Positions 6,112-8,994 of a stretch of DNA of 64,000 bases are shown one piece after another. The notes under the pieces were generated by a model. That model searched no databases, was not told the origin of the DNA, and saw only the letters and a list, made by a program, of their open reading frames with translations. Every line of letters begins with the position of its first letter. The first letter of the stretch is position 1. The DNA is taken from NCBI RefSeq assembly GCF_017348835.2, contig NZ_CP071375.1. One strand, written 5' to 3'. The position numbers and the translations under genes were made by a program. This stretch comes from Escherichia coli. GTDB taxonomy: Bacteria > Pseudomonadota > Gammaproteobacteria > Enterobacterales > Enterobacteriaceae.

Positions 6112-7059
<948 letters not shown>

Positions 7060-7518
7060 TTAACGACCTCAATTCCACGGGATCTGGTGGCGTTTAAAGT
7101 GTGTGGGCATTTTACGGGAAGGTTACATTACTGTAAACATGATTAAATTCCTGTTACTTGGATTTGGCTGTCAGGTCACATATGTTGCAAAACATATCAG
7201 GTTGATTTTAAGAAGCTGTTGCAAAAGGGCGTTATAACAAAAGGGGAGTGCAGAAGGAGTCTGGGCGGGCAATTGGTATAACCAATGCGAAATAAAACAA
7301 TTATTTAACAAATAATTATCATTGGAGTGACAACTGGGTGGTGAGAAAATAAAGACTCATTAGCTGAATCGTGTAAGAAAAATAGAATTTATAAATGGCG
7401 CCAATAATTTCCAAACGCTAAGCCGCACAAAAGAACAAATATTAATAAGCGATGCTGATGTTTATTTAGCCGTAATAATTACGGCGAGTGATTACTACAG
7501 CTAAATAATATTTACAGA
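7060..7518 (-). promoter_or_regulatory. cyoABCDE promoter/regulatory region (459 bp, AT-rich) containing several palindromes
   Basis: Large intergenic region upstream of cyoA; cyo operon is known to be controlled by ArcA/FNR/Cra/Fur/CRP; individual sites not resolved here. Confidence 0.6.
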
Positions 7519-8994
7519 TTACGTCAGATGCGTTTTTCGTAGCGCCAGATAATCCAGCAAACCACCAAGCACGACGCCAGAAAGGGCGACTAAAACCCCG
7601 ACTTCCAGCAGAGCAGGCAGGAAAGAGAAGTGCGTCAAATCCAGCGCGTCCATCGTCAACAGCAGTAACCACACGGCCAACAGGCTGACGCCCGCCGCCA
7701 GTGTCCACATGGCAAAGGCATAACCTGCCGGATATGCGGTACGGGAGATAAAGTTGTCATTTACTCGTGTATATTCAAGCGTCTGGCGGCAAACCAGCAG
7801 CAAAATAAGCCCAGGTACGGCAGCGGCGACGGAGAATAGATAGAATGTCGACCAGCCGTGTGCTTCAACAAACCAACCCGCCACGGGGCCGACATAAACT
7901 CGCCCTACAGCAGAAAGCGCTGAGAGCAGGGCAAATTGAGTAGCGGAAAATGACTTATTACATAGCGTCATTAACAGCGCGACAAAGGCTGATGTGCCCA
8001 TCCCGCCACAGAGGTTTTCGAAAAAGACGGCTGCGCCCATGCTGTAGAGATGCTTATCAGTAATCGACAGCAGCCAGTAACCAGCGTTAGACGCACCTTG
8101 TAAAATGCCGAAAATCAGCAGTGCCCGGAATAGAGACAGGCGCTGCATCAAAATCCCACCGTACAATGCGCCAACAATGGTCGCTAGTAAGCCAAGCGTT
8201 TTGTTTACCACGCCTACTTCACCCGCATCAAACCCGACGCCGCGAATCAAAAACGTGGTTGTCAGGCTCATGGCGAATGCGTCGCCCACCTTATACAGCA
8301 CGATAAGAAGCAAAATAAGCCAGGCATTATTGCGACCAAAGAAATCTCGCAGAGGTGCAACAACCGCTTGTTCCAGCGTTTTGGGCACAGGAATGGTGTC
8401 GGTTGGTTCTGGTGCAAGCAACGTCGCGATAATACAGGGGATCAACAGCGCCGCCATCAACCAGTACATGCCCTGCCAGCCCAGCCATTTATCTGCCAGC
8501 CACAGGGCTAGGCCGCCGGAAACCAGCATCCCTAAACGGTAACCCAGAACGCTGATTGCCGCGCCCGCACCACGTTCTTCTGCCGGGAGCACATCGGTTT
8601 TCCACGCATCGAAGACAATATCCTGGGAGGCAGAGCAAAAAGCGATCACCACCGCCAGCGCCGCCATCCAGCGGAGTTGGGTGCCTGGTTCGAGAAAACC
8701 CATCGCCGCAATGGCGACTAATAACAGGATTTGCGTGGCGAGCAGCCACCCGCGCCGCCGCCCAAAAAATGGGGGCGTGTAGCGGTCCATCAGCGGTGAC
8801 CAGAGGAATTTAAAAACGTAAGCCTGGCCTACCAGAGAGAAGAAACCAATGGTTTTGAGATCGATATTCTCGACCGTCATCCAGGCCTGTAAGGTGCCGG
8901 ATGTCAGGGCGAGCGGTAGCCCGGAAGCAAAACCCAGGATCAGCAATATGGCTGAACGCGGCTGTTGAAAAATACGTAAATATTGACTGGACAT
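7519..8994 (-). CDS. ampG: Muropeptide permease AmpG (MFS), 491 aa
   Basis: ORF-track full length; MSSQYLRIFQQPRSAILLILGF... Confidence 0.95.
   Translation of the reverse strand: MSSQYLRIFQQPRSAILLILGFASGLPLALTSGTLQAWMTVENIDLKTIGFFSLVGQAYVFKFLWSPLMDRYTPPFFGRRRGWLLATQILLLVAIAAMGFLEPGTQLRWMAALAVVIAFCSASQDIVFDAWKTDVLPAEERGAGAAISVLGYRLGMLVSGGLALWLADKWLGWQGMYWLMAALLIPCIIATLLAPEPTDTIPVPKTLEQAVVAPLRDFFGRNNAWLILLLIVLYKVGDAFAMSLTTTFLIRGVGFDAGEVGVVNKTLGLLATIVGALYGGILMQRLSLFRALLIFGILQGASNAGYWLLSITDKHLYSMGAAVFFENLCGGMGTSAFVALLMTLCNKSFSATQFALLSALSAVGRVYVGPVAGWFVEAHGWSTFYLFSVAAAVPGLILLLVCRQTLEYTRVNDNFISRTAYPAGYAFAMWTLAAGVSLLAVWLLLLTMDALDLTHFSFLPALLEVGVLVALSGVVLGGLLDYLALRKTHLT

Follow-up and report, generated by a model that had tools for sequence, protein, structure and literature searches.

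Which regulators act on the DNA between ampG and cyoA in Escherichia coli, and does this region hold a Fur box and a palindromic operator? An earlier note, made from the sequence alone, had described an AT-rich region of 459 bp upstream of cyoA with a 7-bp perfect inverted repeat and an element resembling part of a Fur box. It had remarked that the cyo operon is heavily regulated, and had proposed scans for Fur, ArcA, FNR, CRP and Cra. We analyzed this region within its window, the whole stretch of 64,000 nucleotides of E. coli DNA in whose coordinates all positions below are given unless stated otherwise. The general description was sound: positions 7060-7518 are the ampG-cyoA intergenic region, 459 bp from the ampG stop to the cyoA ATG, with a GC content of 36.6% as against 51.6% for the whole window. 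The operon is indeed heavily regulated, with published ArcA and PdhR sites in this region and regulation by Cra stated in the literature.

Drawing on identity to published sites, ArcA matrix scores, conservation and shuffle statistics, we consider it highly probable that 7060-7518 is the complete, already characterized regulatory region of cyoABCDE (cytochrome bo3 oxidase), with an ampG 3' hairpin at its far end, a judgment that covers this explanation in all its parts. The region is ordinary, already-known regulatory DNA, and the cyo control region is among the better-mapped respiratory ones of E. coli. The 'Fur-like' element is part of a published ArcA site, and several elements that the earlier note had not reported are present: a PdhR box, a Cra half-site, and a sigma-70 core promoter overlapped by a second ArcA site.

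The ampG-cyoA intergenic region and its conservation

The region is bounded by two genes on the minus strand: ampG (7519-8994), whose stop at 7519 forms the upper edge, and cyoA (6112-7059), whose ATG at 7059 forms the lower one, with cyoBCDE downstream. The intergenic region was found in 5424 of 5426 complete E. coli genomes, with 100% identity to several E. coli chromosomes; one of the 5426 matching places lies on a plasmid and not on a chromosome. From K-12 MG1655, 7060-7518 differs by six substitutions, without indels, and window positions convert to the K-12 coordinates of NC_000913.3 by adding 444551 and to those of the older U00096.2 by adding 443775. Identity to the window goes down to 95.4% in the strains listed, and three further records lie in the 90-95% band. 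Across eight E. coli strains, 47 of 519 aligned positions (7030-7548) vary, with dense variation at 7239-7345; the core promoter, the palindrome ATATGTT-GCAA-AACATAT and GTTATAAC are invariant or nearly so.

We further surveyed 80 cyoA loci, taken from one genome per species. Synteny of ampG and cyoA and a spacer of about 390-480 bp are kept in most Enterobacterales loci, and several spacers are longer (520-1425 bp). An alignment of 20 Enterobacteriaceae upstream regions with the window shows conserved blocks at the core promoter and 5' UTR, TGTGAC, GTTATAAC, the PdhR box, the ArcA repeats, the Cra half-site, two blocks at 7400-7441 and the hairpin after ampG.

Two other kinds of feature were set aside. 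The small open reading frames of the region (44 aa on the plus strand and 46 aa on the minus strand) are broken in relatives by indels, including an 11-bp one. An exact repeat of the 10-mer TGTTGCAAAA (7183 and 7217) was also dropped: 19% of shuffles hold such a repeat, and its second copy is kept only in Citrobacter and Salmonella.

The core promoter and 5' UTR

The sole promoter-like match in 6900-7700 (10/12) is the sigma-70 core promoter of cyoABCDE, on the minus strand at 7109-7137, with TTTACA as the -35 element (7137-7132), a 17-bp spacer and TAAAAT as the -10 element (7114-7109). Every Enterobacterales locus scanned has TTTACA-N17-TAAAAT, with at most one mismatch, at a similar distance (-74 to -91) from the ATG. 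We infer that transcription starts at about 7102 on the minus strand, because the site positions -38 to -7 given by Park et al. (2013) correspond to window 7140 to 7109.

The 5' UTR would then span about 43 nt (7060-7102, minus strand), with a Shine-Dalgarno sequence GAGG at 7070-7067, and is nearly invariant among 20 Enterobacteriaceae. Upstream of the Shine-Dalgarno sequence, a short stem CCAC/GTGG can be drawn on the minus strand by pairing 7090-7087 with 7078-7075. In this hand-drawn stem of 4-5 pairs, two pairs are AU instead of CG in Erwiniaceae and Yersiniaceae, which is weak evidence and essentially one evolutionary event; RNAalifold predicted no structure in the 5' UTR.

A conserved TGTGAC element upstream of the promoter

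Further upstream, nearly all Enterobacterales share ATGTGAC (7174-7180 in the window), which sits at -133 or -122 relative to the cyoA ATG. It lies 55 bp from the start of the -35 element in most taxa and 44 bp from it in Escherichia, Citrobacter and Salmonella, a difference of exactly 11 bp. With the exact 11-bp deletion in this clade, ATGTGAC still lies on the same side of the helix as seen from the promoter.

The deeply conserved TGTGAC forms half of a CRP-like element, TGTGA-CCTGAC-AGCCA, at 7165-7180 on the minus strand. The center of TGTGA-N6-AGCCA lies at about -70.5 in E. coli and at -81.5 in most other Enterobacterales, at the distance and on the helical face of class I activation. 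Class I CRP-dependent promoters have site centers near -61.5, -71.5 and -82.5. Scanned with the consensus TGTGA-N6-TCACA instead of a curated matrix, the CRP core match at 7165-7180 is at chance level, 7/10: the left half is perfect, the right half poor, and 87% of shuffles do at least as well. cyoA is listed as a known CRP target but was not recovered by genomic SELEX, and the CRP site of RegulonDB to which Lamoureux 2024 refers may not be the one at 7165-7180. On balance, we lean towards reading the TGTGAC element as a putative CRP site in class I position (-70.5), a reading made from sequence.

The block could instead be the target of another factor, one that recognizes the GTCAC/GTGAC-type repeats recurring upstream in other Enterobacterales, and we hold this to be possible but the less probable reading. 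Erwiniaceae and Yersiniaceae read TGTCAC-N14-GTGACA and then GACACC-N10-GGTGTC, inverted repeats that differ from the CRP arrangement, and the adjoining GGCAGAAC is conserved although CRP does not require it. The modest 7/10 core match and the failure of genomic SELEX to recover cyoA as a CRP target point in the same direction. However, TGTGA is itself a CRP half-site, and -70.5 and -81.5 are classical class I distances one helical turn apart; together with the listing of cyoA among known CRP targets, these argue for the CRP site that we favor.

The Fur-like element lies within a distal ArcA site

The element likened to a Fur box at about 7310-7325 is present, as AATAATTATCATT at 7311-7323, and the best Fur match of the region overlaps it, but that match is at chance level and the element belongs to an ArcA site. 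Reverse-complemented, the 13-mer AATAATTATCATT reads AATGATAATTATT, and this sequence is direct repeat 2 of the distal ArcA site, continuing into repeat 3. The 'Fur-like' 13-mer is thus repeat 2 of this published site, read on the opposite strand, and it resembles a Fur box because one TGATAAT heptamer doubles as an ArcA repeat.

In K-12, three ArcA ChIP-seq peaks lie upstream of cyoA, named cyoA1, cyoA2 and cyoA3, and an arcA mutant derepresses cyoABCDE 64.9-fold (Park et al. 2013, PLoS Genet 9:e1003839; peaks in Tables S2-S4), so that both in vivo ArcA occupancy and ArcA-dependent regulation are on record for K-12. The window is identical to K-12 over the ArcA sites except at position 7324.

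Peak cyoA3 was mapped to 451079 (U00096.2; window 7304), with a predicted site at 451066-451108 whose sequence is TTGTCACTCTAATGATAATTATTTGTTAAATAATTGTTTTATT (Park et al. 2013). This is the distal site, four direct repeats at 11-bp spacing on the minus strand (7291-7333; -231 to -189). It differs from the published sequence by one SNP, at 7324 (G here, A published), which falls in the weakest repeat. We scored the window with an ArcA matrix built from 113 published boxes (Park 2013, Table S3), leaving out both cyoA boxes; the training boxes have a minimum of 9.7 bits and a median of 16.0 bits. At 18.9 bits, the box ATGATAATTATTTGTTAA (7305-7322) outscores every other position of the 64 kb on both strands, and the overlapping box at 7294-7311 reaches 18.0 bits. 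The distal box also matches TGTTAAnnnnnTGTTAA at 11 of 12 positions, reached by 1.2% of shuffles. Altogether, 7291-7333 combines at least two TGTTA-type direct repeats, 11 bp apart center to center, with a box-level score. TTGTTAAnTAnTTGT is conserved in Enterobacteriaceae and Erwiniaceae, and an inverted repeat, AATTATTT-AAC-AAATAATT (7299-7317), lies within the site.

The promoter-proximal ArcA site lies under peak cyoA1: the predicted site at 450884-450915 (U00096.2) corresponds to window 7109-7140 with identical sequence (Park et al. 2013). Its three direct repeats on the plus strand (ATTTTACGGGAAGGTTACATTACTGTAAACAT; -38 to -7) score 13.3 bits with the independent ArcA matrix and overlap the sigma-70 core promoter. 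Peak cyoA2, at 450990-451010 (window 7215-7235), has no predicted box (Park et al. 2013). Under it sits a conserved TTGTTATAAC block at 7231-7240 on the minus strand, with the palindrome GTTATAAC, which is exact in about half of Enterobacteriaceae loci and near-exact in most others (GTTATAAA, GTTATAAT, GTTATCAA). The TTGTTAT of this block stands alone as an ArcA-type direct repeat and ranks second among the single ArcA repeats of the region (8.7 bits), and we infer that it may nucleate the middle peak.

Could AATAATTATCATT still be a working Fur box, with Fe2+-Fur binding at about 7307-7326 over ArcA repeat 2, making cyo iron-responsive and possibly competing with ArcA? We regard this as unlikely. 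The only perfect Fur heptamer of the region, TGATAAT (ATTATCA on the plus strand, 7315-7321), does fall on the element, as does the best match to the 19-bp Fur consensus (12/19 at 7308-7326). However, 63% of shuffles reach this match and 44% reach the 10/14 match to the 7-1-7 form, so the Fur scan gives a chance-level result; like those for CRP, FNR and Cra, it used consensus strings rather than curated matrices. A match of 12/19 falls in the range of some real Fur sites, and Fur and ArcA compete for overlapping DNA at sodA. RegulonDB includes Fur in its list of cyo regulators. A Fur box requires several hexamers in an array, whereas the element has one good hexamer or heptamer, and no second or third Fur hexamer is conserved in the orthologous regions. 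In other genera, TGATAAT shows moderate conservation upstream of the TTGTTAA repeat, but the conserved columns TGATAAT, TTGTTAA and TTGT follow the 11-bp phasing of ArcA repeats, which fully explains their conservation.

The 13-mer AATAATTATCATT also occurs in papers on Fur boxes of other bacteria, whereas cyo goes unmentioned in the main text of the E. coli Fur ChIP-seq paper. In anaerobic Salmonella, cyoABCDE has been reported as Fur-repressed, with transcripts 3- to 8-fold up in a fur mutant; yet the only Fur motif predicted for Salmonella cyoA, a weak one, is AAATTACCAATAATTTCC, the counterpart of window 7400-7412, and the study lists no published Fur binding (Troxell et al. 2011). We therefore retain the distal ArcA site as the identity of this element.

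PdhR, Cra and other conserved blocks

Between the ArcA sites lies a PdhR box, AATTGGTataACCAATg (7271-7287), with the palindrome ATTGGT-ATA-ACCAAT at 7272-7286. Genomic SELEX placed a PdhR site of the same sequence at 451054 (window 7279), matching the consensus at 13 of 14 positions (Anzai et al. 2020). None of 500 shuffles of the region reach this 13/14 match, and the box joins the AATTGGTnnnACCAATT pattern to published binding; most Enterobacteriaceae have kept it. O157:H7 strain MB9-1 and strain JJ2434 show a C>T change in its right arm at 7282 (ACCAAT to ATCAAT), which could weaken PdhR repression of cyo in those two lineages.

Beyond the distal ArcA site, we identified a candidate Cra (FruR) box, GCTGAATCGTGTAAGA, at 7363-7378 on the plus strand, from its conservation and its match to the consensus. 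CGATTCAGC is invariant in 21 aligned sequences (20 Enterobacteriaceae and the window) and present in most Enterobacteriaceae loci, and GCTGAATCG at 7363-7371 is a perfect strong Cra half-site of the GCTGAAWCG type. With consensus strings, the Cra scan yields 12/13 to RSTGAAWCSNTHHW at 7363-7376 and 12/16 to the palindromic consensus, the latter reached by 1.4% of shuffles. According to Kim et al. (2018), cyoABCDE is under the control of Cra.

The FNR scan (TTGAT-N4-ATCAA) came to nothing, with a best match of 7/10 that 99% of shuffles reach, and consensus scans of the region for FNR, CRP, GadE, CusR/HprR, IHF and Fis were all at chance level. MarA was excluded, a cyoA fragment having served as a non-binding control (Sharma 2017). 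At 7400-7441 on the minus strand, conserved blocks without an assigned factor, TGGAAATTATTG and ATATTTGT..TTTTGTGCG, recur in most of the 20 aligned Enterobacteriaceae. The weak Fur motif predicted by Troxell 2011 is the Salmonella version of the first block (TGGAAATTATTG).

A conserved hairpin downstream of ampG

At the far end of the region, folding and covariation reveal a hairpin 3' of ampG (7462-7508, minus strand), with an 18-bp stem in the sense RNA and no U-tract after it. Its free energy is -22.3 kcal/mol (z = -4.1), and the inverted repeat GCCGTAAT-A-ATTACGGC (7469-7485) lies within it. Across 18 sequences, 81% of cells are paired and 12 of the 18 pairs have changed on both sides; these covariation values were reached in none of 500 shuffles, and slid controls were much lower. 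One invariant G.U pair points to the RNA in the ampG sense. A covariance model found the hairpin in 19 of the 80 loci, always about 400-450 nt upstream of cyoA. It found no second copy within the 64-kb window, which argues against a repeat family. In one Citrobacter genome, an ERIC-like element (AAGTAAGTGACTGGGGTGAGCG; positions 1776-2045 of that locus, L070) is inserted between the ampG stop and the hairpin, and the distance from hairpin to cyoA is kept.

An Rfam scan of 6900-7700 at a permissive threshold returned no family and gave only a meaningless miRNA match (E = 0.89) on the hairpin. We rejected the hairpin as an intrinsic (Rho-independent) terminator: the stem is AT-rich and followed by UAAAUAAACA rather than a U-tract, no 3' end maps to it, and a terminator scan of 6900-7700 found none. 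Term-seq lists no 3' end between K-12 451530 and 452393. Its strong 3' ends lie at window 6977-6979, about 80 nt inside cyoA, and at 7842, inside ampG ('ampG int' RNA), that is, at K-12 451528-451530 and 452393 (Adams et al. 2021); both fall outside 7060-7518. Most likely, to judge from sequence and predicted structure, the hairpin would stabilize the ampG transcript at its 3' end or reduce the transcription that runs on into the cyo control region.

A different account of the region takes in both this hairpin and the TGTGAC block. The hairpin would be an uncharacterized conserved structured RNA or insulator rather than a terminator, and the TGTGAC/GTCAC element, of which the E. coli palindrome would be a local variant, would be the site of an unrecognized activator and not of CRP. 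Taken jointly, we consider these propositions improbable. We thus keep to the known cyo control region with an ampG 3' hairpin.

The palindrome ATATGTT-GCAA-AACATAT

The 7-bp perfect inverted repeat that had been noted at about 7180-7197 is exactly there (ATATGTT-GCAA-AACATAT, -95 to -78, confirmed by sequence inspection), but it is no more than chance would supply: among 2000 shuffles that preserved dinucleotides, 37.7% had a perfect inverted repeat whose arms measured 7 bp or more and whose spacer did not exceed 12. Perfect inverted repeats are enriched in the region as a whole, with three having arms of at least 7 bp (P = 0.016) and two having arms of at least 8 bp (P = 0.0095); the other two are those in the distal ArcA site (7299-7317) and in the ampG hairpin (7469-7485).

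Eight diverse E. coli strains all carry the palindrome unchanged while nearby DNA varies, a pattern that might point to constraint. Other genera keep only the promoter-proximal arm (TTGCAACAT on the minus strand, next to TGTGAC), which is part of TTGCAACATATGTGAC. The distal arm varies, reading GATATG in E. coli, GACATA in Citrobacter, GACACA in Salmonella and GTCACA in Klebsiella, and a single C/T substitution separates the E. coli palindrome from the non-palindromic Enterobacter version. Among the papers covered by a full-text search, none prints the palindrome sequence. Because only the proximal arm is conserved, one substitution separates the palindrome from the Enterobacter version and the literature search gave no match, we read the palindrome as most likely an Escherichia-specific coincidence, itself without function, beside a real element.

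That it is instead a genuine operator, for an unrecognized dimeric regulator or for two inverted ArcA monomers feeding the middle ArcA peak, is quite improbable: the invariance among E. coli strains despite 47 variable positions, the regional enrichment of inverted repeats, a position usual for upstream regulators, the ATGTT in each arm (weak ArcA repeats of 6.9 bits on the plus and 5.2 bits on the minus strand) and the proximity, 20-45 bp, of peak cyoA2 with its lack of a predicted box speak for such an operator, but an equal repeat is expected in 38% of shuffles, the distal arm is unconserved in Citrobacter, Salmonella, Enterobacter and Klebsiella, with Enterobacter one substitution away, ArcA binds direct repeats at 11-bp spacing rather than inverted ones, and the sequence appears in no paper found by full-text search. 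The coincidence remains our preferred reading of the palindrome.

Discussion

These elements suggest how the region may work. The sigma-70 promoter TTTACA-17-TAAAAT would start cyo transcription at about 7102 on the minus strand, and the TGTGA half within the conserved TTGCAACATATGTGAC would be used by an activator bound upstream, for which CRP at a class I position (-70.5) is the likeliest candidate. When oxygen is scarce, phosphorylated ArcA represses the operon from three places, namely the three repeats that cover the core promoter (7109-7140), a position in between near 7225, and the four-repeat site at 7291-7333. A pyruvate-responsive PdhR operator (7271-7287) would act between the ArcA sites, with the Cra box (7363-7378) beyond them.

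The useful outcome is a corrected map in window coordinates, which carries little weight as a discovery. In this map, the 'Fur-like' motif is reassigned to ArcA, the PdhR box is identified as the true palindromic operator, and a Cra box and a phase-conserved TGTGA are added. It also provides an example of how easily AT-rich ArcA repeats are mistaken for Fur boxes.

Compared with known systems, the region shares with the Fur box (GATAATGATAATCATTATC; at least three GATAAT hexamers) its AT-richness and one perfect TGATAAT heptamer, but differs from it in a chance-level match of 12/19, in the lack of a hexamer array and in a conservation that follows ArcA phasing. The likeness to class I CRP promoters is closer, with a conserved TGTGA half-site at a class I distance and on the same helical face across Enterobacterales, although the second half-site is poor here (AGCCA or CGGCA) and the score is at chance level. 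With Cra operators the region shares a perfect, invariant strong half-site, which lies about 270 bp upstream of the start and is thus unusually far for direct action on the cyo promoter. The published cyoA box of the PdhR operator family (AATTGGTnnnACCAATT), known from pdhR, ndh and cyoA, is 7271-7287 itself. Finally, among the multi-direct-repeat sites of phosphorylated ArcA (Park 2013), the element once flagged as Fur-like is one of them, cyoA3, and differs from it in strain only, with G rather than A at 7324.
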